IMG/VR virus record: IMGVR_UViG_3300005529_000043
Coordinates: 1-56,427 of that record
Length of the DNA stretch: 56,427 nucleotides
Source: a virus
Taxonomy: Duplodnaviria; Caudoviricetes
Strand: one strand, 5' to 3'
Position 1 is the stretch's first letter. Every line of letters begins with the position of its first letter. The notes beneath the pieces are model-generated. The model did no database searches and had not been told where the DNA came from. It worked only from the letters and a program-made list of their open reading frames with translations. Both the position numbers and the translations under genes were made by a program. Below, piece by piece: positions 14,084-55,857 of the stretch.

Positions 14084-14148
14084 GCAGGGAAGAGAAGGAC
14101 GGGAGGGAAAATTGGAAGCAGACTATCGGCGGTCTGCCAGCGCACTCG

Positions 14149-14221
14149 TAACGGGGACGGGATTCGAACCCGTGACCTTCGGCTTATGAGGCCGACGAGC
14201 TGGCCGCTGCTCTACCCCGCA
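14149..14221 (-). tRNA. tRNA-Met(CAT), initiator-like, no encoded CCA
   Basis: TGCGGGG TA GAGC AGCGGCCA GCTC G TCGGC CTCATAA GCCGA AGGTC ACGGG TTCGAAT CCCGT CCCCGTT A; 1:72 mismatch and overall sequence resemble tRNA-fMet. Confidence 0.9.
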
Positions 14222-18992: not shown

Positions 18993-19349
18993 TTGAATAG
19001 GTACGAGCGTGCAGCTCGAAGCAGGTCGCGGGTCGCTCGGCGGAAGGAAGAGTTGCGAAGGATACGGGCCGCGTTCTATCGCGCCTGCCCGTGCGGCGAA
19101 AGCGATCCTGCCTGCCTCGACTTCCACCACAAGGACCCCAGCCTCAAAGTCGCCCCGATCTCCGACATGATAACCAACTGCGTTTCGACGGAAGCGTTCC
19201 TCGCGGAGCTGAGTAAATGCGTCTGCATTTGCTCGAACTGTCATCGGAAGCACGAAGCGGAAAAGCGGGGATACCGAACGGCCGACTACACACTTAAAAC
19301 CGAATTCGAGTCCGAGAGTTTCGATCACGAAAGCGAGGTGGAAGAGTAA
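18993..19349 (+). CDS. HNH endonuclease
   Basis: CPCGESDPACLDFHH..KCVCICSNCHRKH; an upstream in-frame ATG (18957) is interrupted by TAA at 18969. Confidence 0.8.
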   Translation: MNRYERAARSRSRVARRKEELRRIRAAFYRACPCGESDPACLDFHHKDPSLKVAPISDMITNCVSTEAFLAELSKCVCICSNCHRKHEAEKRGYRTADYTLKTEFESESFDHESEVEE

Positions 19350-19359
19350 CGTTTTTTTT

Positions 19360-19462
19360 GGGCGCCGTAGCTCAGTGGGTTAGAGCGTCCAGGGCCTCTG
19401 AGGGGATGGAATCGCCTCACGCCACTGGAAGGCCGCGGGTTCAAGTCCCGTCGGTGCCCCCA
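19360..19462 (+). ncRNA. tRNA-like RNA A with 32-nt hairpin replacing the anticodon loop
   Basis: Acceptor GGCGCCG/CGGTGCC, D arm GCTC/GAGC, TCCAG/CTGGA stem, T arm GCGGG-TTCAAGT-CCCGT, C73 plus CCA, G-1. Confidence 0.8.
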
Positions 19463-19549
19463 GCCATAAGAAGAACGGAAGTAGTTCACGCCAACTCTCA
19501 CCGGTGTGAGCATCAGTATGCAACACTCAACCCAAGGTCTCTCACCTTG

Positions 19550-19635
19550 GTGCGGGCGCCTGAAGGCAAGGCGAGGCACAGGGTTTTTCTTTCATGTTTC
19601 CCTGTACAAGCGGGTTCGATCCCCGCCGCTCGTGC
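19550..19635 (+). ncRNA. tRNA-like element B
   Basis: GTGCGGGCG/CGCTCGTGC stem, ACAGGG/CCCTGT arm with 16-nt U-rich loop, T arm GCGGG-TTCGATC-CCCGC. Confidence 0.6.
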
Positions 19636-19636
19636 G

Positions 19637-19855
19637 ATGAAAGTTATACGAATTAAGGGCTTAAAGAAGAAGCGGCCGCTCCGGTGGCTCGTGACGATCC
19701 CAGAGAACCCGATGCTAACGAAAGCCATCCAGGCGACGCAGCGGACGGCGTATCGCAGGGGATACTCGCGCAAACAATCGACACAGTTCGCGCTGAACTT
19801 ATTTAGCTCCGAAGTGCGGCGCGCGCTCGGGGCGCTGGAGCCAGCGACCAGCTAA
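19637..19855 (+). CDS. Small basic protein
   Basis: Start re-called at ATG 19637 (MKVIRIKGLKKK); upstream part of track ORF overlaps the tRNA-like RNAs. Confidence 0.5.
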   Translation: MKVIRIKGLKKKRPLRWLVTIPENPMLTKAIQATQRTAYRRGYSRKQSTQFALNLFSSEVRRALGALEPATS

Positions 19856-19920
19856 AGCGTGACGTTCCGGCATACGTCCCAAGCGAAGGCGTGACGACGC
19901 TTCGCTTAAAACGCCGGGTT

Positions 19921-19972
19921 GGGGTGCAGGCGGATGGGCCGGCGCGGGCGAGGTTCGAGTCCTCGGCACCTC
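19921..19972 (+). ncRNA. tRNA-like element C (no anticodon arm)
   Basis: GGGGTGC/GCACCTC, mini D hairpin GGC-GGATGG-GCC, T arm CGAGG-TTCGAGT-CCTCG. Confidence 0.65.
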
Positions 19973-20042
19973 TCTATTTTCTTTGTCAACCGAACCGTTG
20001 ACAAAAGTTCACAAAAACCAAGCTATACATTGACAAGGTCTT

Positions 20043-20252
20043 ATGGAAAAGCGAGCGTTTAAACGGCAGATTTTACGCAACGAGGCGGCGTGCCCCAGGT
20101 GCGGGGAGGTGCTAACGTCGCATAGAGTCACCGTTATGCACCGGTGTGCCTGCGGGAACCTGTTCGTGGGCGGCGGAAAACTCCTGATCGATCGGCATAG
20201 CCACATCGGGCCGTATGTCGAAATGAGTATTTGTAAGGTAGTCCCGGCATGA
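20043..20252 (+). CDS. Small Zn-binding phage protein
   Basis: RNEAACPRCGEVLTS..CACGNLFVGGG. Confidence 0.65.
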   Translation: MEKRAFKRQILRNEAACPRCGEVLTSHRVTVMHRCACGNLFVGGGKLLIDRHSHIGPYVEMSICKVVPA

Positions 20253-20340
20253 TCGCGGTCCTACTTCTCCTTCAATGGTTCCTTCGCCGGCGCGACGAAC
20301 GGGCGCTTGGGAAGAACTACGATTGGTCGGGAATCGACGT

Positions 20341-20919
20341 ATGAAACATCCACTCCTCTGCTTTATTGACCTCGAAACGACGGGGACGAACTTCGAGCGG
20401 CACGCGGTCACGCAGATCAGCGGGACGATCGCGGAGCTTATCGAGGGGAGCGTTGCGCCATCGAAGACCTTCGACTTTTTGGTGAAGTCGTTCGAGGGTG
20501 CGGAGATTTCCGAACAGGCGCTCGAGATCACGGGGAAGACGCGCGAAGACTTAGAGGGACATTCCGATGCCAATGAGGTCTATCGCGACTTCGTGAAAAT
20601 ACTCGGGCGCTATTGCAGCAAGTTCAACAAGACGGAAAAGTTCTGGCTCGTCGGCTACAATGCGCGGTTCGACTACGACTTCCTGCGAAAATTTTTCGAG
20701 CGCCAGGGCGATAAGTATTTCGGTTCGTGGTTCTGGTTCCCGCCGATCGACGTCATGAATATGGCGGCCGAGCGGCTGATGAAGGAACGCCACGCGATGC
20801 TGAACTTCAAGCTGGGAACCGTGGCCGATAAGCTGGGGGTCGAGGTGCCAGAGCGACTTCATGACGCGTCGGTCGACATCGCGCTCACGCGAGCTATCTA
20901 CGACAAACTAAGGCAATAA
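20341..20919 (+). CDS. DnaQ-like DEDDh 3'-5' exonuclease
   Basis: IDLETTG, GYNARFDYDFL, HDASVD motifs; start re-called at ATG 20341. Confidence 0.9.
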   Translation: MKHPLLCFIDLETTGTNFERHAVTQISGTIAELIEGSVAPSKTFDFLVKSFEGAEISEQALEITGKTREDLEGHSDANEVYRDFVKILGRYCSKFNKTEKFWLVGYNARFDYDFLRKFFERQGDKYFGSWFWFPPIDVMNMAAERLMKERHAMLNFKLGTVADKLGVEVPERLHDASVDIALTRAIYDKLRQ

Positions 20920-20923
20920 CCAT

Positions 20924-21427
20924 ATGACAGCACAGTATATCACGACAGCGCTTAAAAGCATTCATCTTTCGAAAGCAGAGTACGATGAGCTCGTAACAAC
21001 GGCACGAACGAGGCTGCGGGAAACAATGTCGGACGTACAGATAACACAGCCACTCGCGGACGGATTCGTTCTTGGCTATTCTATGATCGCCGGCACCGAG
21101 GTCGTGCCGCTGAGATACGCCGATCCGGACCTGATCGCGAGATACTGTGTATTCGAGACTCCGGGCGAGGTTCTGCGAGAGGCGCGGGAGCGCGAAATTC
21201 GCCGCAAAGCCAGCTTGGTGCGGAAGCGGATTTTGAAGGAGGAAGGGTTCGAAGAGTATGAACCCGGCCCGCAAGACCTCGTCTACACGGCCTCGTTTAA
21301 GCGCGGAGAGTGGGCGCCGCTGTGTGGGAGACACGATGGCGTTATTCCCTGGTACGTATTCCCCAGCAGCGCAACACGGGACCGGTTCTTTCGACTCATG
21401 GGGCCGGAACTTAAAGACTTGGTGTGA
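20924..21427 (+). CDS. Hypothetical protein
   Basis: Operon-packed ORF. Confidence 0.55.
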   Translation: MTAQYITTALKSIHLSKAEYDELVTTARTRLRETMSDVQITQPLADGFVLGYSMIAGTEVVPLRYADPDLIARYCVFETPGEVLREAREREIRRKASLVRKRILKEEGFEEYEPGPQDLVYTASFKRGEWAPLCGRHDGVIPWYVFPSSATRDRFFRLMGPELKDLV

Positions 21428-21951
21428 CGGAGGGATTTTATCGCGCGATCTTTTCGCGGAATTCTGTAAAATACTGGGATGAACTTTGCGCGGTCGTCCC
21501 AGACCTCAGACCCAACTTCGGAGTGCCGCAGTCGAAAGAGTGGCACCCGGAAGGCGCCGTCCATATCCATATCTGCAAAGTTATCGATGCGGCCGCGGAA
21601 CCTTTAATTCGAAGTTCCGCGCCGCTCGACCGATGCGATTATACATTCGTACTGGCCGCCCTATTCCACGACATCGGGAAGGCCGCGACGCATGAGTTTA
21701 AAAACGGCATTCACAGCTTCCGCGACCACGAAACGAAGTCCGTCGAGATACTGCAAGACTATCACGGGCTTATCTACGGACTCGGAGTAAAGCGGTGGAG
21801 GCTCGAGGCAATCGTACGGGACCACATGCGCGCCCACAGATATATCGACGGGCGCATGACAAAGCGAAGTAAGCGGCTGGAATTTATCCAGCTCCCGCAT
21901 TACGAGGACCTTCTCAAATTCGCAAAATACGACAGACAAGGAAAGCTTTAA
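21424..21951 (+). CDS. HD-domain phosphohydrolase
   Basis: QSKEWHPEGAVHIH, AALFHDIGK, HE..S, HM, D..G motifs like HD domains of CCA-adding enzymes and Pnkp-associated proteins. Confidence 0.85.
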   Translation: MTEGFYRAIFSRNSVKYWDELCAVVPDLRPNFGVPQSKEWHPEGAVHIHICKVIDAAAEPLIRSSAPLDRCDYTFVLAALFHDIGKAATHEFKNGIHSFRDHETKSVEILQDYHGLIYGLGVKRWRLEAIVRDHMRAHRYIDGRMTKRSKRLEFIQLPHYEDLLKFAKYDRQGKL

Positions 21952-21953
21952 TC

Positions 21954-21966
21954 AACCTAAACGACA
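21954..21966 (+). promoter_or_regulatory. Start-associated motif AACCTAAACGACA (first of about 11 copies)
   Basis: Directly abuts ATG 21967; other copies listed in findings. Confidence 0.8.
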
Positions 21967-22340
21967 ATGGGAAAGAAAAAGACATTATTGACAATAGAGC
22001 CTCTCGGCAACAACATCCCCTACATAGACGATGCGGACCTACGTATCGCCGAGTGGGAGCCGGAGGAGCTGGGTGGGCACTGCGTCAGCATAAGCGACGA
22101 AGGAATTACCATCGGATGCCAGGGGCCCTATTCGTTGCAACAGTGGCGAGGGTGCTCGGCAGAGAACTCGCGCAGAAGAACTACCTCACCAAAGACGCCG
22201 AAGCCAATCTCCGCTACGTATTGCCTATTTTGGTGAAGGCATTTAAGGCGCGCAAAAAAGCGATCGCCGCGTTCGAAAAAGAAATGTCGAAGACCATCGA
22301 TATTCCCGCACGTCCTACCAAGAGGAAGCGTGGAGCCTGA
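21967..22340 (+). pseudogene. Probable single gene split by a frameshift near 22150
   Basis: Protein-like N-half (..TIGCQGPYSLQQW) appears to continue in the -1 frame (VLGRELAQKNYL..). Confidence 0.45.
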
Positions 22341-22800
22341 AGCGATTATCGAAGCCGTGTGTCGTGAGTTCGAGATCACTCCAGAGGTACTCGCGGGGCC
22401 GGACCGGACAGCACGCGTTAGTTCGGCCCGTAGTATCGCAGCGGCGCTGCTGTGCGATAACCTCAACCTCACGTTCAGGCATGTAGGCGAGATATTAAAG
22501 AGGGATCGCTCCACCATCCATACGGCCGTAAAAACCACACGCGCGAAAGCTAAAGCGCAACCCAATTTCGCTGTAACGATGAGCAATATCTTCTCCGATG
22601 CGCGCGACGCACTTCTACCCCCAAAGGGACGCGAGGCGAAGCACGCGCGTCGAGCACGGGAGTTTTTCAGGCTCCTTCGGGAACTACCTCACCTTTCGTG
22701 GGAGCGAAAGGTGGAATTATTAGAAATCGAATTCGACGCCGTCGCTTCCGACGCCGTGCGCGAATTCGCGACGGCCACGCCGGGCCAGACGGCGCACTAA
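22330..22800 (+). CDS. DnaA C-terminal-like HTH protein
   Basis: IIEAVCREFEIT..R..VSSARSIA..VGEILKRDRSTIH. Confidence 0.8.
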   Translation: MEPEAIIEAVCREFEITPEVLAGPDRTARVSSARSIAAALLCDNLNLTFRHVGEILKRDRSTIHTAVKTTRAKAKAQPNFAVTMSNIFSDARDALLPPKGREAKHARRAREFFRLLRELPHLSWERKVELLEIEFDAVASDAVREFATATPGQTAH

Positions 22801-22816
22801 CACAACCACTACTTTA

Positions 22817-23149
22817 ATGCTAAAAACAGTATTCGGGGCCCTGGGCGTCATCGCAGTTCTCCTCGCCCTTACGTGGCTCGCTCAGGGCAATGAGTTTTTT
22901 ATGTACAAAGTCTTTGCGCCGGCTCGGGAGAACGTGCGGCGCGAGGTTTTTGAGAATACGAAGTCATACAACCAGGGGATGGTCCAGCAAATCCGCGGGT
23001 ACATGGCTTCCTACGCGCAGGCGGACTCGTCCCAAAAGGACGCGCTCGCCTCCGTCATCGTCCACGAAACGGCAGACTACGACGAAACAAAGCTTCCCGC
23101 CGACTGCCAGACCTTCATTGCTCAACTTAGACAGAAACAACTCCAATGA
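22817..23149 (+). CDS. Membrane-anchored protein (partner of adjacent lipoprotein)
   Basis: N-terminal TM; ENVRREVFENTKSYNQGM. Confidence 0.65.
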   Translation: MLKTVFGALGVIAVLLALTWLAQGNEFFMYKVFAPARENVRREVFENTKSYNQGMVQQIRGYMASYAQADSSQKDALASVIVHETADYDETKLPADCQTFIAQLRQKQLQ

Positions 23150-23643
23150 AATACGCCTTTATTTTACTACTCGCTATCTTCTGCGCCTCGTGCAGCCGGA
23201 ACTCGTCTTCAGACGACGTTCAGCGCCAGCAACAAGAAAAGCTGTTAGCCGAGGGAACTGCTCAGACCGGAATGCCGGCGATCAAAAACTTCCGGGAGCG
23301 GAAGATGCTGAAGGATATTCTGGAGCTTCGCGACCAGAATGGACTGACGACGTACACGTATCTCTATAACGAGATGCAGGGGAAACTCGTATTTTTCGGG
23401 GAGACGATCGGCTACGGGATTCCTTACGCCACAGAGTACACCAGCCCAGAGAAAGACGCGTACTACACGACAAGTTCAACCGTCCACATCACGCTCCCGC
23501 AGGCCGACCCGAACGGGCTTTTTGCTCCGTCGAGCGCCGAGGGGACGTGGGTGTTACTTAAAAACCCCAACGGTAAAGACGTGCAGCCCGTCTACGTCGA
23601 GCCACGGATCATCGTCAGTCCCTTCCGGCTCGACCTGAACTAA
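23146..23643 (+). CDS. Phage lipoprotein
   Basis: Lipobox-like signal; IGYGIPYATEYTSP..QADPNGLF..YVEP. Confidence 0.7.
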   Translation: MKYAFILLLAIFCASCSRNSSSDDVQRQQQEKLLAEGTAQTGMPAIKNFRERKMLKDILELRDQNGLTTYTYLYNEMQGKLVFFGETIGYGIPYATEYTSPEKDAYYTTSSTVHITLPQADPNGLFAPSSAEGTWVLLKNPNGKDVQPVYVEPRIIVSPFRLDLN

Positions 23644-23790
23644 CCATCACGAATAATTGCGCGAGACATGGGGTGTGAGCCGCACCCCTTGGCACGTCGC
23701 GCTAAAAATTATGGAAATGATACAGGAATTTCTTGGCGGCTTCTTCCTCGGGGTGATCCTTGTGGTGGTAATCCGGTGGAGGGAGATACG

Positions 23791-24000
23791 ATGAAGCCGA
23801 AGCTCCAATACAAAATTAATGGGAAGTGGTACGATGCGCGCGACGTCGCCACCGTCGCGGGCGGCGAGGCGGACGAGGTGAGCTACGCCGTTGTCAATGG
23901 CGACTCTAACCACCACGTCATCGAAGACACGCGCCACGCTTTTTATTGTAACTGCGAAGGGCAGTGTAAGGGACACAAACACGGAGTAATAGTTCCATGA
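23791..24000 (+). CDS. Small Cys/His protein
   Basis: Start re-called at ATG 23791 after GGAGGGAG; FYCNCEGQCKGHKH. Confidence 0.4.
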   Translation: MKPKLQYKINGKWYDARDVATVAGGEADEVSYAVVNGDSNHHVIEDTRHAFYCNCEGQCKGHKHGVIVP

Positions 24001-24368
24001 AAAAGAAAAAGAGAATGCCGCTTATGACCCCGGAGCAGCGATCGTCATTTATCGATGCGCTAAGAAGCGGGAGATATAAACAGGGGCGCGGGATGATGAT
24101 TAGCCTCGACGGCCAGCGGCTTTGCTGCCTCGGCGTCCTTTGCAAAATCAACCACATTGCGCTTGGGAACGTCAACGACTGCGTCAGCGACGAGCGCGCG
24201 AACGCATACGAATACGTGAAGAGCCTCCTGGGCGATGCGTGGTCAGACCTCCTCCACGCGAATGACAAGCAGTCACTTTCTTTTAACGAGATCGCGGACA
24301 TCGTCGAAGGGCCGGCATTCACGCGTGCACTAAGTACCGCGATCCGAGACGACGACGATGACGAGTAA
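23997..24368 (+). CDS. Conserved phage hypothetical protein
   Basis: ALRSGRYKQG..CCLGVLC..ND..SFNEIADI. Confidence 0.65.
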   Translation: MKKKKRMPLMTPEQRSSFIDALRSGRYKQGRGMMISLDGQRLCCLGVLCKINHIALGNVNDCVSDERANAYEYVKSLLGDAWSDLLHANDKQSLSFNEIADIVEGPAFTRALSTAIRDDDDDE

Positions 24369-24379
24369 AATAATTCTAA

Positions 24380-24841
24380 ATGCTCGCACTTCAGCCGATA
24401 ACATTTAAGGACGCGAAAGCCTTTATCGCGGCTCATCACCGTCACCACGCTCCTCCTCGAGGCTGGAAGTTCGGAGTCGGATGCGCGAGCGTCGGCCGAC
24501 TCGTGGGAATCGTAACTGTCGGGCGTCCGGTCGCTCGCCACTACGACGACGGATGGACGCTGGAAGTCACTCGACTCTGCACAGACGGGACCAGAAATGC
24601 CTGCTCATTTCTATATGCGGCGGCGGGAAAAATTACGCGCGCGCTCGGATACAGGCGGCTCATAACCTACACGCTGCCCGAGGAGGGTGGCGCAAGCCTC
24701 AAGGGGGCTGGATGGCGCTTAATCGGCGAGAGAGGCGGCGGGTCCTGGAGCCGTATTCGACGACCGCGAGAAGATAAACACGCGACACAAAAAAAAAGTA
24801 TCTATGGGAACTCCAGCTCGCCGAGGCCGACCGTCGGGTAA
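24380..24841 (+). CDS. XF1762-family protein
   Basis: HHRHH..G..IVTVGRPVAR..LEVTRLCTDGTRNACSFLY..ITYTL..E.GASL. Confidence 0.85.
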   Translation: MLALQPITFKDAKAFIAAHHRHHAPPRGWKFGVGCASVGRLVGIVTVGRPVARHYDDGWTLEVTRLCTDGTRNACSFLYAAAGKITRALGYRRLITYTLPEEGGASLKGAGWRLIGERGGGSWSRIRRPREDKHATQKKSIYGNSSSPRPTVG

Positions 24842-25055
24842 GCTAAAGGACTACCCGCGCAGTCGCGGTCGCACGCAATATCAGTATGCGAATACGCGAG
24901 TGTCGGCGGAGGAATTCGCTAAGACCTTCGGGAACTGGATTCCGAGGCTTTTCACGACGGATCGGGGATGGTCGGGTATGGATATACTCTGGCTCACCCC
25001 CTATTGTACAAAACGCTTTATGAGGAAACTGCGAAAACGGAGGGGCGATGAGTAA
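24804..25055 (+). CDS. Small basic hypothetical protein
   Basis: Operon-packed ORF. Confidence 0.45.
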   Translation: MGTPARRGRPSGKLKDYPRSRGRTQYQYANTRVSAEEFAKTFGNWIPRLFTTDRGWSGMDILWLTPYCTKRFMRKLRKRRGDE

Positions 25056-25187
25056 GCGGGCGAAAAGCGGAGTAATCAAGAAGACTCGCGGCGCCGACGT
25101 CAGGATGGGGAAGGCGAAGCTGCGCGAGTTGAAGCGGATTGAACGCGAAGCCTATCTTCGCGAGGGATGGAGGCAGGTGATAAATTA

Positions 25188-26075
25188 ATGGCAGACATAC
25201 CATATTTCCCCCACGACTTCAACGCGCGGGGAACGAAGAAGCTGAAGAGACTTCGTCGCAAGCACGGACCAGGCGGCTACGGCCGATACTGGATGTTGCT
25301 CGAAATGATGAGGGAATCTCCTCTTTATCGGATCGACTTGCTGGACGAAAATACGCTCGAGGATGTGATCGAGGATTTGGATTTCGCGACCGAAGAGGAC
25401 CTCCGCGGCTTTTTAAAAGAGCTCGTCGATCTCCGACTTATCGAGGTCGACGGCAATATCATTTCGTCCGCCGGCTTCGATGAGCGCATGGCGTGGATGG
25501 ACGCATTCCGACAAGGCAATTCGGAGCGGGCCAAGAAGGCTGCAAAGGCCAGGTGGGGGCGCGCTGGCGGAGAGAATGCTAACGATGCTCGAGCATTGCT
25601 CAAGCATGACGAGCACATGCTAAGCAATGCTACCCACCCACCCACCCACCCACGTACCCACGTACGTACGGACGGGGCCCTTGTGCCTTCGGCACCGGGC
25701 CCGGATCGGGAGACAACGGTTTCTTACAGCCCAGCCCTGGACTACAAATATGGAGTCTGGAGTGAGAGGGACGGCGTGAGGTATTTCCGGCATGAGCGCT
25801 GGGCCTCCATGAGTGAACAGGAGAGGCAGCGATACGTCGCCGATGGGCATGTGGACCCTCGCTATATCAAAGAGGATGGGACAACAAGGAGCTGGCTGCC
25901 GCCGGACCTGGAAGGTCGATCGAGCGACGAGCCAAGCGATGGTTTGAAGAGCGTCATCAGCGCGCGGTTGGGGAATAAGATAATCAACACTTACCCAACC
26001 CCCAAAATAAGTGAATCTTCGCCCCACTCCCATATTGAGATCGAGGAGGAGGTGGAGGAGGGGGACCCGTTTTAA
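25188..26075 (+). CDS. Phage replication initiator (Lin1244/DUF4373-like N-terminus)
   Basis: YFPHDFNAR..L..KHG..GYGRYWMLLE; AKKAAKARW linker; internal iteron-like repeats. Confidence 0.8.
   Translation: MADIPYFPHDFNARGTKKLKRLRRKHGPGGYGRYWMLLEMMRESPLYRIDLLDENTLEDVIEDLDFATEEDLRGFLKELVDLRLIEVDGNIISSAGFDERMAWMDAFRQGNSERAKKAAKARWGRAGGENANDARALLKHDEHMLSNATHPPTHPRTHVRTDGALVPSAPGPDRETTVSYSPALDYKYGVWSERDGVRYFRHERWASMSEQERQRYVADGHVDPRYIKEDGTTRSWLPPDLEGRSSDEPSDGLKSVISARLGNKIINTYPTPKISESSPHSHIEIEEEVEEGDPF
25575..25673. repeat. Iteron-like repeats inside initiator gene (putative origin)
   Basis: Clustered TGCT/AGCA units (ATGCTCGAGCAT, TGCTCAAGCA, TGCTAAGCA) followed by (ACCC)5 and ACGT repeats. Confidence 0.55.
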
Positions 26076-26747
26076 GGAGGGTTTCTGCACAATATAAAAA
26101 CGGGAAAGAATGCTTTTTATATGGAAACCCACTTATACCACGAATTGAAGCGGGTACAGGGAGAACACCATCGTCGGGCGGCGCGCGAGGGGCCCCGAAT
26201 TGAATCGGGGGCGGGCCTTTTTGAAAAAGGATGCTTTTTTTCTGGAAATCGACTTCGTTCCCGTGCCTGAGATCGAAGGACGGTTTCTAATTGAACTCGG
26301 AACTAATCTAAAACCCTCCGGTACGTTACGCCGTAGGTCATAATCGCGCCGTAAGTGTCGTTTTTGGTTCGTTTAACCGACAACACTCTGACTTGTTTTC
26401 ATTGCCGCCGGTCGTATCGCTGTTTTACCTTTCTATTAGATAGTTTTTGTCTTTGTGAAATCGCTGGTTTGTCTATACAGCTAACCGGTTGTCTATGAAA
26501 AAGGTGTGCCAACGCTCGTTTTAGTGCAATTGCCACCGCTGGCAATCATTGGCACGGCATTGGTGAAGGTAGCCCAGTGAGTTCATTTTACAATTCACTT
26601 TCCTTCGGGACAGCTAAGGGTGACAGCCTTAGCGTGTAGAGAGTCAGTCAGTAGGTCAACACCCCGAACCCTCGGCTTTCCGCTAAACCCTGTCCTGATT
26701 GAATGTTCTTTGACAACCGCCGGAGCCTATCGCTCCAAGAACTCACT

Positions 26748-26831
26748 GGGAGTAGCGTCGTGCTACGGTATGCCTATAAAGGCCAATAGGGCCGGGTTTA
26801 CGCCGTAAAGGGTTCAAATCCCTTTACTCTC
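26748..26831 (+). ncRNA. tRNA-like element D (degenerate, long variable arm)
   Basis: GGGAGTA/TACTCTC, CCTAT/ATAGG arm with 8-nt loop, T arm AAGGG-TTCAAAT-CCCTT. Confidence 0.65.
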
Positions 26832-26857
26832 TCAAATTCAACCTAAACGACACACTT

Positions 26858-27145
26858 ATGTATTCACACCGTTTCCAACCCGAGCAATTCCGGGAAGCGG
26901 TCTTACGCCGCTATCCTCGCATTCCATTAGAAGCATTAGATCGAATCGTTGACCGGGAAGCTCAGCGGCCCGTTAACCACTCGCTTTCTCCTGCCTCTTA
27001 CGTTCCCCTCGCAGTCGCAAGTGTACACGGGTTCGTTCGTCATAACTTTACAAATTATGATATACTGCTCGAACGCACTATGCGACACATCGCACGCGAC
27101 AAGGTGCGTCGCGCAGTAGAGAACTATCTTACCGCGTGGAGCTAA
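26858..27145 (+). CDS. DUF2293-like protein
   Basis: YPRIP..VRHNFTNYDILL..AR..V...L..W. Confidence 0.7.
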   Translation: MYSHRFQPEQFREAVLRRYPRIPLEALDRIVDREAQRPVNHSLSPASYVPLAVASVHGFVRHNFTNYDILLERTMRHIARDKVRRAVENYLTAWS

Positions 27146-27261
27146 TATGGAAACACTTCCATACTATACCAAAGACGTTTACGGGGTTCGGAGACATTAT
27201 CTGCGAGACCCCGAACAGGCCCGGCACGTTGTCGCGCTGACGGGGAAAAGACGCCGCTAAA

Positions 27262-27308
27262 AACCCCAAATGGAGATTTTTACGGGGGGTTAACTCCCTC
27301 CGCGGGTT
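27262..27308 (+). ncRNA. Decayed tRNA-like element H
   Basis: AACCC...GGGTT closure and CGGGGGG-TTAACT-CCCTCCG hairpin, same layout as elements E and F. Confidence 0.4.
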
Positions 27309-27336
27309 CACTATTCTTTAAAACCTAAACGACAAC

Positions 27337-28557
27337 ATGGACGAAGAACTACTAACACTGCTCGAATCGGCACCGGCGGTTCTTGAGCCGGATATAGGAA
27401 CGGAGCCGGAAGAAGAAGAGCCGGAACCGTTTTGCTCGTGCGGAAGGTGCGGCGAAGTTATCGAAAAAGAATCTGACGCACACCGCGTTCGCGTTCGTAA
27501 TTCTGGCGAACCATACGAAAACTGGTGTACCGACTGCACGGATTATGCCGCTTTCGACCCGCATCACACGGAGTTATACAGTGACGAGCTGTGGGATGAA
27601 TGCTACTTTTGTTGCGACAACTGCAATGAAATCTATTCGCGAGACTACTATTTCGGCGATGGAATTTGTGAGGATTGCGCTCCGAGGGACGACGACGAAG
27701 AAGACGATTCCCCCTTAAGGGACTACGGCACACGTGCCGAAAAGGTACACGGATTCTACGGCGCTCACCGTGCGAACTGGAGCGGATTATACGAATCCGG
27801 GTATAAGGTTCACGGGGAAACATTGTATTTCGGAATGGAACTCGAAATAGAATGTCTTTCCGACGCCGAGGATTTACGAGCCGCTATCGACCGTATTAAC
27901 GACTTACTCGCGGGATTCGCGATTTTAAAATCCGACGGTTCCCTTACACGTGGGTTTGAGATTGTTACCGCGCCTGCTACGATGCCTGAATTCAAGAAGC
28001 GAACGGCAAAATTTTTCGCCGCGCTTCCCGAACTTTGCAGGCAGTATCACTTGCGTTCGTGGCATACGTCCACGTGCGGTTTGCATGTTCATGTTTCGCG
28101 TAGTGCCTTATCCGAATTGCAAATCGGAAAGATACAGGCGTACATAACTGATCCCGCGTCTTATGCACTGGTTCGAAAGATTGCGGGCCGCGACTCTTCA
28201 CGATGGGCCGGATTCTCGGAAAAGAAGTACCTCAAAGATCGTCCGCTCGAAATGGGACACTCCGCCGAGCGATACACAGCAATTAATCTTTGCAACGCTA
28301 AGACCATTGAGTTCCGACTGTTCAAGGGTACAACCTTAGAGGCGGGAATTTTTCGGAATTTAGAGTTCGTGTTGGCGCTGGCGGAATTCACGTTACCCGG
28401 CGGCGGGATGAGTATTTCTGAATCTCACGGTGGCAGCTCATTTCAAAAGTTTTTGGAGCAAGCCGCCCAACGCAACACCTATCCAAACCTTACACGCTTC
28501 TTGACCGCACGCGGATTTCTTCGCGGTCATAAGCGACACGGGAACATTTTAAAATGA
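27337..28557 (+). CDS. Amidoligase-family (COOH-NH2 ligase) protein with Cys-rich N-terminus
   Basis: FGMELEIE, KSDGSL..GFEIVT, CGLHVHVSR, RY.AIN..TIEFRLF. Confidence 0.88.
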   Translation: MDEELLTLLESAPAVLEPDIGTEPEEEEPEPFCSCGRCGEVIEKESDAHRVRVRNSGEPYENWCTDCTDYAAFDPHHTELYSDELWDECYFCCDNCNEIYSRDYYFGDGICEDCAPRDDDEEDDSPLRDYGTRAEKVHGFYGAHRANWSGLYESGYKVHGETLYFGMELEIECLSDAEDLRAAIDRINDLLAGFAILKSDGSLTRGFEIVTAPATMPEFKKRTAKFFAALPELCRQYHLRSWHTSTCGLHVHVSRSALSELQIGKIQAYITDPASYALVRKIAGRDSSRWAGFSEKKYLKDRPLEMGHSAERYTAINLCNAKTIEFRLFKGTTLEAGIFRNLEFVLALAEFTLPGGGMSISESHGGSSFQKFLEQAAQRNTYPNLTRFLTARGFLRGHKRHGNILK

Positions 28558-28576
28558 ACAGGAGAATCAAGTATAT

Positions 28577-29446
28577 ATGTGTGTAATTGTGGTAAAGAAG
28601 CCAACGGATATTCTCACGAACGCGGATTTCAGACTCTTCGCTCGTGAGAATACAGATGGCTGGGGTTTCGTTTATAATGATGAAAAGGGGACGCACGCAG
28701 TGAAGGGGATGAAACTCCCCCAACTCTTTCAGGCCGCGCCCGTGCTTGAGGGCAAGGAAGCAGTCCTGCATTTTCGTTTGTCAACGCACGGAACGAAAAC
28801 GGAAGAGAATTGTCACCCATTCGAAGTGCTTCCAGGGCTTTACTTCCTGCACAACGGCATTTTGCCTATCGCGTGCAGTAAAGATAAGAAGCGTTCCGAT
28901 ACGTGGCACTTCGCGGAATTAGTGCTAAAGCCGATGTTTGCGGCGATTCCCTCCGCTAAGTTGAGCGACTACATCCGGAGTGGAGCGTTTCGCTATCTAC
29001 TCGAATCCGCAATCGGAGCAACTAACAAAGTTGTGCTCTTTGATTCTTTCGGTCCTGTCATTTTCAATCGGGACAAGTGGAGCGAAAAGACCGGCCCAAA
29101 AGGGTTGCTTATGAGCAACGGCTATCCCTATCTTTTTTCGTTTCGCGACGATCCGTTCGAGGATACGGAATTCCCGTTTGGCGCGAATAAAGCCAAGAAG
29201 TGGAGGTCGGAAGATGAATGGCAATACGAAGCGCCGCCGCTGTCCACGCTAACGCCGGATAGCTTTATCGACTTCTTGGAAGAAATGCCGGAACATCGAC
29301 TTTGTGATCCGTCATGGCTTTTCGAAAACGATATTACTCCGGGGATGATCGAAGACTTCGTCTCTTTCTATCCCGCCGAAAGCGCAAAACTACTGGCTAA
29401 ACTCGCGGAGGAATATCAAACCTACGTTCAGTATTATTATGAATAA
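28577..29446 (+). CDS. Class II (Ntn) glutamine amidotransferase
   Basis: MC start, N.DGWG, HFRLSTHG, NCHPF, HNG, SDT. Confidence 0.9.
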   Translation: MCVIVVKKPTDILTNADFRLFARENTDGWGFVYNDEKGTHAVKGMKLPQLFQAAPVLEGKEAVLHFRLSTHGTKTEENCHPFEVLPGLYFLHNGILPIACSKDKKRSDTWHFAELVLKPMFAAIPSAKLSDYIRSGAFRYLLESAIGATNKVVLFDSFGPVIFNRDKWSEKTGPKGLLMSNGYPYLFSFRDDPFEDTEFPFGANKAKKWRSEDEWQYEAPPLSTLTPDSFIDFLEEMPEHRLCDPSWLFENDITPGMIEDFVSFYPAESAKLLAKLAEEYQTYVQYYYE

Positions 29447-29648
29447 CTGCAAATATCTCGAAAGAAAAGCGGTTCCCGAATCGGCCCTAACGCTCTTCGA
29501 TGGGCCGGGGGGCCGCATATACTTCGTGCGGGAAGACGGGTTCGAATACGAAAAACCGATGCTGTACTTTCGCCTCCCGGACGGAACGATTCGCGCCTTA
29601 TCGCTACTCGGCGAGTTTCGCGCTATGCGAACCGCTCTTTCCAGTTAG
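29439..29648 (+). CDS. Small hypothetical protein
   Basis: Overlaps GATase stop. Confidence 0.5.
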   Translation: MNNCKYLERKAVPESALTLFDGPGGRIYFVREDGFEYEKPMLYFRLPDGTIRALSLLGEFRAMRTALSS

Positions 29649-29662
29649 CACACACAACCCTT

Positions 29663-29714
29663 AACCCTGCCGTGAGACGGTCACACTACGAGAGTTCGAA
29701 TCTCTCGCCGGGTT
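29663..29714 (+). ncRNA. tRNA-like element E (no anticodon arm)
   Basis: AACCCTGC/GCCGGGTT (one mismatch), GTGA-GACGG-TCAC D-like hairpin, GAGAG-TTCGAAT-CTCTC. Confidence 0.65.
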
Positions 29715-29749
29715 CTTATTTCTATTCCCATTAACCGGAGGGACAAACG

Positions 29750-30268
29750 ATGCAACTACCGAGATTAAAGGCGTCCGACATGTATCTTTATGAGGAGCAG
29801 GACGCAACTCATGAGATAGCACAGACATTCCGCTATCTTGCGGAGCCTCAAGAAATCGCGAAGGAGCGCGCCTGCGCTATCGCTCAGGCCGTGAACCGTC
29901 ACGATAACCTGATCCGCGCAGTCACTTGTGTGCTGAACTGTATCGAAGGGCACGAAGAAATCAAGCACCCATTCGAAGACTACGAACCGGAGTCGCTCAG
30001 ACAGTTACAGGACATGGTTCGCGATATTCGGGCAGGGGCAGACGACTTGGAGGATATGAGCGGGAACGTTTCCCAGGCCTCACGAACGAACGATAACAAG
30101 CGAACGATCCGGGAACTAACGGAAGCCTTGGAGGCGGCGGTTCAGCGGCTCGTTAGTTTAGATAGACAGCTACTCGCGGAGCTTGGAATTAAATTCGAGA
30201 ACGATTTAGGAGAGATGATTCGCGGACGCGCCGCACTCGCCAAAGCGAAAGGAGAGCAACATGCTTGA
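29750..30268 (+). CDS. Hypothetical phage protein
   Basis: GGAGG upstream; ends RAALAKAKGE typical of phage early proteins. Confidence 0.6.
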   Translation: MQLPRLKASDMYLYEEQDATHEIAQTFRYLAEPQEIAKERACAIAQAVNRHDNLIRAVTCVLNCIEGHEEIKHPFEDYEPESLRQLQDMVRDIRAGADDLEDMSGNVSQASRTNDNKRTIRELTEALEAAVQRLVSLDRQLLAELGIKFENDLGEMIRGRAALAKAKGEQHA

Positions 30269-30602
30269 CACAACTCGCATCATATCCATCGACCCGGAGA
30301 AACGCAAGCCGTGTGAGGCGTGCTCCGGCACGGGCTGGCTGTTCGCGAGTACGTCGTTTAAGATCGAACGATGCGATGCGTGCGAACAATACACGAACGA
30401 CGCCTACGGTGCATTAGCGTTCGCCGAGGACGTATATATCGAAAGCAAAGGCGAGGTTACCGTTCGCATTTCGGCACAGCTTCAGCGCGGCGAAGCGAGT
30501 AGCTGGTGGTTTTTCGCTAATCCGAAATACGTCTCGGGATTCGTTCTCGCGGTAGCAAAACTGTTCCCGGACTACAATCCCTTATCGGACGAATTCCGCT
30601 AA
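30261..30602 (+). CDS. Hypothetical protein with CxxC pairs
   Basis: CEACSGTG..IERCDAC. Confidence 0.6.
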   Translation: MLDTTRIISIDPEKRKPCEACSGTGWLFASTSFKIERCDACEQYTNDAYGALAFAEDVYIESKGEVTVRISAQLQRGEASSWWFFANPKYVSGFVLAVAKLFPDYNPLSDEFR

Positions 30603-30644
30603 CCCCGTTTGGAACATGCGCCGGTTCGATTCCGGCGCGGGGTT
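30601..30644 (+). ncRNA. tRNA-like element F (44-nt minihelix)
   Basis: AACCCCGT/GCGGGGTT, 11-nt GG-containing linker, GCCGG-TTCGATT-CCGGC. Confidence 0.7.
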
Positions 30645-30665
30645 CTATTTACTATCCTAAACGAC

Positions 30666-31004
30666 ATGAAACTTACGGAACGAGAAACTGCAACCGTGCT
30701 GGCGGCCTTGCGCTACTGGCAGGAAGACTTCGGCATTGCCGGTGGCGCGCTTCGAATGCCGCTCCACTTCAACGACTGCGATCCGCTCACGTCCAAGGAG
30801 ATCGACGACTTGTGTGAGCGCATTAATGTCGTCGAGGGTGATGACGCCGAGGGTATGGAGCGATTCGTACGAGAAATTGCGGACGACGAAACGCGTTGCA
30901 CCTGCGCGGACGAGAGTTACTTCGGGGAAGACCATACCTCGAACTGCGTATTCGCTAATGCCCACGAACTCATTTACGGATATAGACCGGAGGGGAAACC
31001 ATGA
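30666..31004 (+). CDS. Hypothetical phage protein
   Basis: Start re-called at ATG 30666; ATVLAALRYWQ..EIDDLCERIN. Confidence 0.65.
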   Translation: MKLTERETATVLAALRYWQEDFGIAGGALRMPLHFNDCDPLTSKEIDDLCERINVVEGDDAEGMERFVREIADDETRCTCADESYFGEDHTSNCVFANAHELIYGYRPEGKP

Positions 31005-31270
31005 CCCGAACAGAACTCTTACGCCGCTTTCCCGAACTGGGAACCGACGAGCCGCTGAGCGGCGCAGACGTTGTTGACCGGCTCTCCGCGTGGTATAACG
31101 AACTGACAAACGACGATGGCGAGGCCGACTTCGGCTTCGTTCCGTCCCCGGCGCTCGCCGATGCGTGGGAGCGATACCAAGCGGGCCAAGCCGTCTCTCA
31201 GTACGAGCTTCGCCGATTAGACGAGGAACGCGCTTTGTATTACGAGCGAAAGGAGTATGAAGATGACTAA
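31001..31270 (+). CDS. Small acidic protein
   Basis: ATGA overlap, GGAGG upstream. Confidence 0.55.
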   Translation: MTRTELLRRFPELGTDEPLSGADVVDRLSAWYNELTNDDGEADFGFVPSPALADAWERYQAGQAVSQYELRRLDEERALYYERKEYEDD

Positions 31271-31670
31271 GAGGATCATTGTACGCGAGATCGAGGAAAA
31301 CGAAGAATACGAGGTTTCCCAGCGTGTGGAAAGGTATCGGTTCCAATACGACTTTGAGTGTCTTGGACGTTCAACGTGGATCGTATGGGGATGGGATGAA
31401 GGCGCTGGCGATTATACGGACTTCCTCGACACCATTGACGCCGAATACGGCCACATTGAGGACGCCGTGCGCGAATTTTTCAAACTCAACGTGTATGGCG
31501 TTTATAAACAGTTCCGTCGCGGGCGCGGCTATGAGAAGCCCGCGTTCACGGTGCAGGCCGGCAACTACGAGGAGGCATACGAGCAAGCCCTCGCGCATTT
31601 AGGCTACAAAGACCTCGTTGGCGGTGCAATGGTGGGGGATGTAGAAATCGAAATCCAAAAGGAAGGATGA
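31257..31670 (+). CDS. Hypothetical protein
   Basis: Operon-packed, AAGGAG upstream. Confidence 0.55.
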   Translation: MKMTKRIIVREIEENEEYEVSQRVERYRFQYDFECLGRSTWIVWGWDEGAGDYTDFLDTIDAEYGHIEDAVREFFKLNVYGVYKQFRRGRGYEKPAFTVQAGNYEEAYEQALAHLGYKDLVGGAMVGDVEIEIQKEG

Positions 31671-31674
31671 GAAG

Positions 31675-31998
31675 ATGCCTAAATACACCGTACATATCTA
31701 TGCGGTCGCAAGGGTTCCCGTTGAGGTCGAGGCCGAGTCGATGGAGGGGGCCATTAAGAAGGCCGAAGAAAAGACGAACCTCTACGATGTTCTGGATAGC
31801 GAGAAGGCGTCGTTTGCAGAGGAAGTAACGGGCTATCTCGTCGATGTCGAAGGCGACGAGGGGTGCGAAAACTCCCGCTACTTTAATACGGACGACCTTA
31901 CCTCGGTTTCCTTCCGCTTTCTGGGTGGCGAGGGTTCGGCCCCGCTTGCGTTCGCCAACGAAGGCGACGGCGAAAACGAAAGATCGTGGGAATCTTAA
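31675..31998 (+). CDS. Hypothetical phage protein
   Basis: MPKYTVH..VEAES.E.A motif. Confidence 0.6.
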   Translation: MPKYTVHIYAVARVPVEVEAESMEGAIKKAEEKTNLYDVLDSEKASFAEEVTGYLVDVEGDEGCENSRYFNTDDLTSVSFRFLGGEGSAPLAFANEGDGENERSWES

Positions 31999-32006
31999 AT
32001 CCCACC

Positions 32007-32080
32007 GGGAGCGACAGGTTGGTGTCGGTCATGCCGCTAAGCGGGGCCGTGAATGGGGTTCGACTCCCCTCGCTTCCACA
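32007..32080 (+). ncRNA. tRNA-like element G with G3-U70/A73
   Basis: GGGAGCG/CGCTTCC-A, GGGG-TTCGACT-CCCC, internal TCATG/CGTGA and CCGC-TAA-GCGG stems. Confidence 0.65.
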
Positions 32081-32136
32081 AACGACAAACAGACGAGTGT
32101 GCCACCCAAGCCCACTCGTCACAACCAAAAACGACT

Positions 32137-32502
32137 ATGGAGAACAAACCACACGGCGCTCCTCACGCGAGGAGCGTCACGGAATTAGTCCTCATGGCAA
32201 AACGTGAGGACGCGACCGAGCTGGTGCGTCTGCGCCGCCGGTTACTACGCAACGCCAAAGCCCGGCTCCTACGCTGCAACGAGGATTTGGCAATCTTACG
32301 CTCGCGATTTCACCCCGGCGACCTCGTCCACTTCCAACCGGACACGGAAGAGGAATGCCTGGGCGGACGCTACATCAAGATCGACATAGTGCTTCCGACC
32401 GACACCGGATACCCTCGCTACGTTGGCACCGACTATCAAACAGGTGACGAACTAACGATGTCGTGGCGGGAGGCCGAGACGGCGGAGCTTTTAGACGAGT
32501 AA
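32137..32502 (+). CDS. Hypothetical protein
   Basis: Start re-called at ATG 32137 after motif variant AACCAAAAACGACT. Confidence 0.55.
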   Translation: MENKPHGAPHARSVTELVLMAKREDATELVRLRRRLLRNAKARLLRCNEDLAILRSRFHPGDLVHFQPDTEEECLGGRYIKIDIVLPTDTGYPRYVGTDYQTGDELTMSWREAETAELLDE

Positions 32503-32524
32503 CTTTTTAAACCCAAACGACAAT

Positions 32525-40002: not shown

Positions 40003-40060
40003 GGGATCGATGGATTGGAAATGGTGAAAACGAACGAATTTTTAAGACGGAGACAGTGGA

Positions 40061-42704: not shown

Positions 42705-42743
42705 CCGGAACCGTTCCGCCTCGCTAACCTAAACGACAAATAC

Positions 42744-44112: not shown

Positions 44113-44503
44113 TTAGGAGCGTTGGGTGAGGGGAAATATCACAGCCGATTTTTCTCGAGCGAATTTTTTAGTATCATGCCATGTTCGATATTTTGCTGCC
44201 GCTGGCTGGATAGCAGTTTAATCGGTTTCAAACCTACCTAACTGATACAATTGTTTCAATCTTAGGGACTTTCCGAAAGGGAAGTACAACCTGCGAGTCC
44301 GGCTACGGTGGTTTTTGAGCGCCTATCGCGTGAGGCTCTTTGGGATTTTTTCTTTTGGGGTGAGCGGCATAAAAACCGTCAATAATCTCCACACCGAATA
44401 CCCAAAACCGACACTCCATAGGCGCTTTTCTAATAAGTGCGAATTATCTTTACATTCTCACAGGTATAAGCTGTGATTAGGATGTCATCCTAAACGACAG
44501 GAC

Positions 44504-55631: not shown

Positions 55632-55857
55632 TTCCCAGACCCTCGCCGTTGTTTTTTATATACCTAAACGACTCTATAACTCGCAGTACCCAAAGCTTCT
55701 GCCATGATAGATTTGCCAAAAACTGACATCCGCGCCTTGCTTGCTCAGGGTGCGGTTGTGTGGGGTCCCGACGGGACGCCTACGCCGCCTTTCCTCCTGG
55801 AGCGACTGGAGGAAAGCCTTCACTACTTTGAGCTTTTTCAACCAATCCTAAACGACA

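Follow-up and report, generated by a model that had tools for sequence, protein, structure and literature searches.

Eight tRNA-like elements between the rightward genes of a soil prophage as candidate t-element-like processing signals

The stretch of DNA analysed here (IMG/VR record IMGVR_UViG_3300005529_000043, positions 1 to 56,427, hereafter the window) belongs to a virus of the Caudoviricetes, and between the genes of its rightward block it carries eight tRNA-like elements (e1 to e8) that retain the acceptor/T-arm half of a tRNA. By analogy with the t-elements of plant mitochondria, we read them as cis signals that would be cut by the tRNA end-maturation machinery of the host, a reading to which we give slightly less than an even chance. 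The window corresponds to C4:38870-95296 of a 3.47-Mb soil metagenome-assembled genome (MAG; 89 contigs, ~55% G+C, 98%-complete), and the whole of it lies within a ~72-kb prophage integrated in tRNA-Asn of this soil bacterium.

Structure and detection of the tRNA-like elements

A first-pass annotation, made from the letters of the window alone, had proposed eight intergenic plus-strand elements, each with an acceptor-like stem stacked on a T arm. All eight sit where it placed them (19360-32079), on the plus strand and co-oriented with the flanking genes, and both the acceptor stem and the T arm were confirmed by pairing in the register of a tRNA, with acceptor strands of 7 nt, a 5-bp T stem and a T loop of 7 nt. 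The elements are the following:

19360..19463, plus strand: e1, tRNA-His-like, with G-1:C73, a 7-bp acceptor stem, normal D and T arms and an encoded CCA
19552..19635, plus strand: e2, cloverleaf-like, Gly-like in its acceptor and T arm; further a D-like hairpin of 4 bp and a 6-bp arm with a 16-nt loop
19921..19974, plus strand: e3, minihelix in which a 21-nt linker joins the 7-bp acceptor to a 5-bp T arm; U73-C74 end
26748..26833, plus strand: e4, 85-nt tRNA-sized element heading its block after a 670-nt intergenic region; U73-C74 end
27262..27309, plus strand: e5, degenerate minihelix (AACCC...GGGTT-C) with T loop GTTAACT, overlapping the TAA of a 37-codon open reading frame (ORF)
29663..29715, plus strand: e6, minihelix (AACCC...GGGTT-C); T arm of 6 bp, internal hairpin of 5 bp
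30601..30645, plus strand: e7, 45-nt minihelix, its 3' strand continuously paired over 13 nt, beginning inside the TAA of the upstream gene
32007..32079, plus strand: e8, tRNA-Ala-like, with G3:U70, A73 and C74; D and anticodon stems weak

Acceptor pairing is complete (7/7) in e1 (19361), e2 (19552), e3 (19921), e4 (26748), e7 (30602) and e8 (32007), reaches 6/7 in e6 (29664) and falls to 4/7 in e5 (27263), or 5 when the N-1:N73 pair is counted. The T stem is fully paired (5/5) in seven elements and 4/5 paired in e8, and seven carry the T loop TTCRANY. The exception is e5, whose acceptor and GTTAACT loop agree with its earlier description as degenerate. Together with e6 and e7 it makes up a structural subgroup (AACCC...GGGTT-C) in which the 3' strand is fully or nearly paired over 13 nt, the stack length of the tRNA-His type, and both e5 and e7 share 1-2 nt with the upstream TAA. 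In folding by minimum free energy (MFE), the terminal helix and T hairpin appear in six of the eight.

The middle of the molecule has fared differently. As had been annotated, the anticodon arm is absent or remodelled, being abnormal or missing in 8/8, and the D arm is missing as well in the mini elements e3, e5, e6 and e7. In e1 a 32-nt segment stands where the 7-nt anticodon loop belongs, and the only ARAGORN solution is an 'intron' tRNA with A33. Canonical tRNA identity was considered and rejected, a 7-nt anticodon loop that offers both U33 and a usable anticodon being present in no element, and none of the eight can decode. At e2 (G at N73, C at N74), a 72-aa ORF opens with an ATG 2 nt past C74. 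The primary sequences are unrelated, as also claimed before: pairwise BLAST matches extend over only 7-13 nt, mostly in the T loop, no direct-repeat family spans the elements, and MAFFT aligned only their 3' halves.

One concern raised with the first-pass annotation was that similar T-loop minihelices might arise as often in shuffled sequence, and they do not. A strict descriptor was set to require a 5-bp T stem, a TTCRANY loop and, within 110 nt, an acceptor paired 7/7. Six of the eight elements were recovered by it on the plus strand of 19301-32200 (12.9 kb), with no match on the minus strand, compared to a mean of 0.019 matches and a maximum of 1 in 1000 dinucleotide shuffles of the same region. 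Across the whole 3.47-Mb genome the descriptor gave 59 matches, 39 of them ARAGORN genes and 20 others, and six of these 20 are the elements described here. The enrichment is thus more than 100-fold against both the shuffles and the genome background, and confined to one strand. Relaxing the pattern brought out no other convincing element within the prophage.

Standard tRNA finders largely pass over these sequences. Only e1 passes the Rfam tRNA model (RF00005, 51.7 bits) and only e8, with two mismatches in its anticodon stem, is called by ARAGORN at default settings, as tRNA-Leu(aag); the six remaining elements were called by neither at these settings. Lowering the ARAGORN threshold yielded 32 tRNA and 8 permuted-tmRNA calls, which we judged to be noise. 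By inspection, six of the eight match GGTTCRANYCC, the motif of the t-element screen of Forner et al.

Position 74 and the tRNA end-processing enzymes of the host

The elements share a further feature with the tRNA genes of the host. Position 74 is C in all 46 mapped tRNA genes of the genome (46/46), and CCA is encoded at only 3 of 47 mapped tRNA 3' ends, so host tRNAs need 3' cutting followed by CCA completion. A universal C74 without CCA suggests a 3'-end pathway particular to this lineage, in which N73-C74 is left to be completed. Read in the register of the host tRNA genes, position 74 is C in all eight elements as well, while C74 occurs in only 4 of 14 background look-alikes elsewhere in the genome, that is, at base frequency. 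We therefore consider C74 a new marker, the elements keeping a gene-level signature that the host 3'-end pathway seems to need. The earlier statement that such tRNA mimics retain the half recognised by tRNA end-processing enzymes was borne out and can be extended to this host-specific base. The host has a type-A RNase P RNA (172.8 bits) and a PolyA_pol/CCA-type nucleotidyltransferase.

Origin of the elements

The elements derive from different tRNAs, His-, Gly- and Ala-like ones among them. The likeness is most extensive in e1, which parallels host tRNA-His in G-1, D arm, anticodon stem, variable region and C73, and which is the sole element encoding CCA. Compared with three host tRNA-Ala genes, e8 has the T arm and acceptor positions 1-3 and 70-73 (G3:U70, A73) in common, with pairs 4-6 altered on both strands in a compensatory manner. 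The acceptor and T arm of e2 are tRNA-Gly-like, its T arm being identical to that of host tRNA-Gly(ccc) over 16 nt. In e6 it is the T arm of host tRNA-Ser(gga) that is matched identically, over 18 nt. Six of the eight have no recognisable identity set.

Two other identities were examined and rejected. Matches of the elements to host tRNAs are only generic (14-23 nt, in the D arm or T arm) and no host acceptor strand has been copied, so they are not integration scars. Nor are the elements duplicates of the attachment (att) site, since the actual att repeat, 42 bp of tRNA-Asn, lies outside the window. This direct repeat bounds the prophage (C4:25107-25148 and, at the other end, the intact tRNA-Asn C4:97321-97398) and corresponds to the 5' half of the tRNA as far as the anticodon loop, not to the usual 3' part. 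The identification of e8 as a tmRNA was likewise discarded: Rfam aligns it with the two ends of the model at 28.5 bits against a gathering score of 47, over 75 nt of 374 positions, and was called a permuted tmRNA only at the lowered ARAGORN threshold, beside seven other implausible calls.

Such ancestry could also mean that the elements are relics of a dispersed phage tRNA set, on their way to deletion and without present function. The clear descent from His-, Gly- and Ala-type tRNAs, the visible degeneration of e5, the weak stems of e8 and the one intact tRNA still retained by the phage would all fit such decay. Other phages carry odd inserted tRNAs too (two are described below), partial tRNA genes are common in prokaryote genomes according to bioRxiv 10.1101/2022.07.05.498093, and no relatives that could reveal selection were found. 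However, neutral loss should strike all arms alike, and here the acceptor and T arm stay paired while the middle has been lost in 8/8. The mini elements look like clean internal deletions that leave both acceptor strands in register, C74 is kept at a rate far from the 4/14 of the background, and all eight lie on one strand, between genes, in a compact genome. We consider simple decay unlikely.

Proposed processing of the rightward transcripts

Under the favoured, t-element-like reading, the elements would have begun as tRNA genes of several kinds that lost decoding and retained the 12-13-bp acceptor/T-arm stack, the T loop and N73-C74. Transcribed within long plus-strand messages, they would be cut by host RNase P at +1 on their 5' side and, on their 3' side, by the host 3'-end pathway, whichever enzyme leaves C74 for the CCA enzyme. 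Cutting would generate sub-operon mRNAs with 5' ends 1 to ~70 nt before the next start codon (at e2, a cut after C74 would leave a single base ahead of the AUG), and excision would release small, stable tRNA-like RNAs. The CCTAAACGAC box described below would be a separate gene-start signal, often placed in the same spacers and independent of the tRNA mimics. Precedent comes from Forner et al. (2007; PMC1920247), in whose study t-elements with a conserved T arm direct RNase P and RNase Z cuts at mRNA ends, some of them upstream of the stop codon.

We favour this reading because the decay is not uniform (acceptor and T arm kept, anticodon arm abnormal or absent throughout), because the enriched elements are intergenic, on a single strand and co-oriented with the genes, and because C74 is kept in every one of them in a host with an RNase P RNA and a CCA-type enzyme. 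It also draws on a genuine tRNA that fills an equivalent slot on the late strand:

14148..14221, minus strand: genuine phage tRNA-Met in the leftward late block, in an intergenic slot equivalent to those of the elements; ends A73-C74
14224..14260, minus strand: canonical intrinsic terminator just upstream of the tRNA-Met, a 9-bp hairpin followed by T7, read directly in the sequence

Several observations weigh on the other side. RNase P cleavage at either e5 or e7 would truncate the stop codon (TAA) of the upstream gene, and e5-e7 begin with A1:U72, while only 1 of 47 host tRNAs starts with A. The T arm is not formed in the MFE structures of e3 and e8, and folding z-scores are modest (-0.8 to -2.6). 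No RNase Z scored above the family cut-off in the 98%-complete genome, the best match reaching 31 bits, and inheritance, not selection, could account for C74 and for the identity relics. Furthermore, no phage relative was found and hence no cross-species covariation, and the near-identical copies of the phage held by three metagenomes contain no informative variants.

The start-codon box

A box, CCTAAACGAC, recurs at gene starts of the window. Its eight exact copies are confined to the plus strand, even though the minus strand carries half of the phage genes, and elsewhere in the genome only scattered 9-mers of it occur; the box is real and phage-specific. Six of the eight copies stand 0-6 nt before the ATG of an ORF of at least 89 aa, amidoligase and integrase included, variants precede two further starts, and several exact copies are found 0-4 nt past a stop codon. 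The copies and variants are as follows:

21956..21965, plus strand: CCTAAACGAC without tRNA-like element, 4 nt past the HD gene stop, with an ATG 1 nt downstream
26842..26851, plus strand: CCTAAACGAC after e4, 6 nt before the ATG of the DUF2293 gene
27324..27333, plus strand: CCTAAACGAC after e5, amidoligase ATG 3 nt downstream
30656..30665, plus strand: CCTAAACGAC after e7, abutting the ATG at 30666
32126..32135, plus strand: variant CAAAAACGAC after e8, 1 nt before ATG 32137
32512..32521, plus strand: variant CCCAAACGAC without tRNA-like element, 3 nt before ATG 32525
42728..42737, plus strand: CCTAAACGAC without tRNA-like element, directly past a stop codon and 6 nt before ATG 42744
44489..44498, plus strand: CCTAAACGAC without tRNA-like element or nearby ATG
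55663..55672, plus strand: CCTAAACGAC without tRNA-like element or nearby ATG
55847..55856, plus strand: CCTAAACGAC without tRNA-like element, 1 nt before integrase ATG 55858, an ordinary hairpin and a T-rich tract ahead

The first-pass annotation had coupled the elements to this motif, stating that five of them are followed by it or a variant and then by an ATG. That description holds for e4, e5 and e7, with exact copies, and for e8, which is followed by both CACAAACGAC and CAAAAACGAC; e6 has only a weak variant, together with a Shine-Dalgarno-like GGAGGG box. The distance from stem to ATG measures 22-58 nt, close to the 21-59 nt given before. The coupling itself is not supported as stated: e1-e3 have no motif, a plain hairpin occupies the equivalent slot at ~55.79-55.83 kb, and five of the eight exact copies stand without a tRNA-like element, so the proposed association is loose. 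We take the box to be a start signal that belongs to the rightward genes as a class and is independent of the elements; it would act in translation or transcription. A primer-type pattern search found no 16S gene in the MAG. An AACGAC following host tRNA-Glu was judged a coincidence.

T4-type phages have cassettes that join a promoter and a stem-loop, and the spacers described here might be built in the same manner, the stem-loop terminating or 3'-protecting the upstream message and the T-rich tract with CCTAAACGAC serving as promoter or start signal. T-rich tracts with TATTT follow e3, e5, e6 and e7, the hairpin ahead of the integrase box sits in the same slot before such a tract, the restriction of the motif to plus-strand genes suggests a class-specific signal and, e7 apart, no canonical terminator was flagged in the plus-strand block. 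Yet the real terminator of this phage is a perfect hairpin plus T7, which no element resembles; as intrinsic terminators only one of the eight was flagged (the T arm of e7), in a region with 21 such sites versus 18.6 in shuffles. A terminator requires no TTCRANY loop, no interrupted stack of 12-13 bp and no C74, and where the motif lies 0-4 nt past a stop codon there is no space for a separate promoter. Overall, cassettes of this type seem a distinctly unlikely explanation.

Neighbouring genes, prophage and host

The rightward block (18.9-33.5 kb) encodes a DEDD exonuclease, an HD/HDIG protein, a DnaA-C-like HTH protein, an XF1762-family protein, a Lin1244_N replication-type protein, a DUF2293 protein, an amidoligase and a class-II amidotransferase-like protein, together with many ORFs without any family. 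For the 72-aa ORF between e2 and e3 the Protein Atlas gave nothing usable, and for a 167-aa ORF it matched only phage hypothetical proteins. Directly before e1, and separated from it by a T8 run, lies the following ORF:

18993-19349, plus strand: ORF with an HNH-like motif (CPCG...DFHH...NCHRKH) recognised by eye; no Pfam match

The DEDD exonuclease and the HD/HDIG protein are encoded just downstream of e1-e3 (window 20275-21951). RNase T is the best solved match of the former, PolC-type enzymes being equally good, and the latter is closest to the HD domain of a CCA addition/repair enzyme (E 1.5e-9); both are far below family cut-offs. From these similarities a link to tRNA 3'-end metabolism is possible, and both proteins are equally compatible with DNA metabolism.

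Enzymes of this kind bear on the idea that the elements act in trans, as excised, CCA-bearing mimics, some of them chargeable (e1 by HisRS, e8 by AlaRS), that would serve as sinks, decoys or aminoacyl donors. His and Ala identity sets suffice for the charging of minihelices. The G-1:C73 and CCA of e1, the G3:U70 and A73 of e8 with its compensatory pairs 4-6, the C74 retained throughout and the nearby RNase T/PolC-like and CCA-repair-like proteins would be in keeping with such a role. Against it, the identity relics are possibly just inherited, six of the eight elements have no recognisable set, the two enzymes match their families too poorly and fit DNA metabolism as well, and no defence or counter-defence partner was identified. 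We regard a trans-acting role as highly doubtful. The variant in which the mimics are decoys for anticodon nucleases is implausible because the anticodon loops are gone. A combination of both modes, the early transcript being cut in cis and the excised, CCA-bearing mimics acting in trans as sinks or decoys for factors or toxins that target acceptor ends or aminoacyl-tRNA, is a long shot; if true, this double duty would be a counter-defence or translation-tuning device without a described phage counterpart.

Ahead of e4, after the Lin1244_N replication-type gene, there is a 670-nt gene-free region (window 26076-26747) with three TTGTCT(T/A) boxes spaced 20-22 nt (26447, 26469 and 26489) and a 30-nt direct repeat at 26105 and 26226, which may be an origin or operator.

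Regarding the rest of the prophage, the tyrosine-integrase ORF begins at window 55858, the minus strand encodes a P22-type portal, a large terminase and a major-head-protein match, and DnaB, a Sak4-like protein and a DUF6371 protein are also encoded in the window. A low-G+C island (47-52%; window 33628-41890, minus strand) encodes proteins of 2124 and 609 aa, each ending in a type-IX-secretion sorting domain and without phage family match, which look like host-type cargo on the phage. A genome-wide check found SusD absent from the host, which looks like a member of a wider Bacteroidota-related group. In another part of the genome (G000 C48:15797-15884), ARAGORN called a tRNA of 88 nt whose anticodon, TTA, would read UAA and whose variable arm is long. 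The sequence around it is low in G+C, and it may be a suppressor-type tRNA from another mobile element.

Searches for relatives

Comparison of 26500-32200 by blastn with 50,697 phage records gave no match, and neither the amidoligase nor the portal protein had a relative in IMG/VR; by tblastn the portal reached three phage records, at only 23-24% identity. The amidoligase was found in 0/40 related genomes and the portal in 0/400 genomes of the phylum at E<=1e-10. A large protein database contained two amidoligase relatives, one 59% and one 47% identical, encoded on contigs of 1.5 and 3 kb. Profile-based searches of JGI metagenomes and of the species-genome collection provided 80 metagenomic (684 kb) and 80 genomic (991 kb) amidoligase loci, all at <=40% identity, and in these 160 loci (1.68 Mb) there was no element cluster and no multiple copies of the motif. 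The strict descriptor gave three non-tRNA matches among them, one likely due to chance (L158) and two that are odd tRNAs of a single locus (L066). The latter are atypical tRNAs (L066:5952-6035 and L066:14352-14458; Rfam 38.4 and 36.9 bits) on an unrelated amidoligase-bearing metagenomic phage contig, one with a 27-nt segment replacing the anticodon arm and the other with a D-loop insertion of ~34 nt. Lastly, a scan of IMG/VR for a T loop followed by the motif returned 28 stretches, all coding or ordinary tRNAs with a single motif copy.

Significance and comparison with known systems

The locus offers eight independent, sequence-diverse examples in one transcript block, with C74 as an internal marker. 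It would be a compact test bed for how mRNAs are handled by RNase P and the 3'-end pathway of bacteria, and for the ways in which phages set mRNA ends without promoters or terminators. Elements of this kind are rejected by tRNA finders, for which reason the device may have escaped notice even if it is widespread. In a search of the literature in full text, supplementary files aside, we found no paper on repeated tRNA-like punctuation of a phage operon.

Phages T4 and T5 carry tRNA gene clusters. Like phage clusters and truncated remnants (bioRxiv 10.1101/2022.07.05.498093), the elements are tRNA-derived sequences among small ORFs; unlike those, they do not decode, are not att repeats and are spread across successive gene blocks instead of being gathered in one cluster.

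Outside bacteria, mascRNA/MEN-beta modules and the tRNA-like units of gammaherpesviruses use tRNA-like folds as RNase P and RNase Z processing signals in longer transcripts. These systems are eukaryotic and no homology is implied; matches to the mascRNA-menRNA model (RF01684) are weak, at 20.5 bits for e3 and 20.2 for the 3' part of e1, with a gathering score of 42.5. The tRNA-like domain of tmRNA (RF00023) has an Ala-type acceptor (G3:U70, A73) and a T arm in common with e8, which differs from tmRNA in its 73 nt, its lack of a tag reading frame or pseudoknots, and its better alignment to host tRNA-Ala.

The use of tRNA-shaped processing signals is textbook knowledge for mitochondria. In animal and fungal mitochondria, tRNA punctuation splits a polycistron at tRNA-shaped units, as proposed here, but those units are working tRNAs, while in this phage only the tRNA-Met of the opposite strand works. 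The closest parallel is with the t-elements of plant mitochondria, which according to PMC1920247 are likewise non-decoding, have a conserved T arm and lie on the coding strand beside mRNA ends. The phage elements have the same combination of a tRNA-like fold, a conserved T arm and an acceptor-like stem beside genes on the coding strand, and the cuts that some t-elements direct upstream of the stop codon resemble what a cut at e5 or e7 would do. The t-elements described there are organellar, with RNA ends mapped experimentally, whereas here a bacterial prophage carries eight candidate elements in 13 kb.

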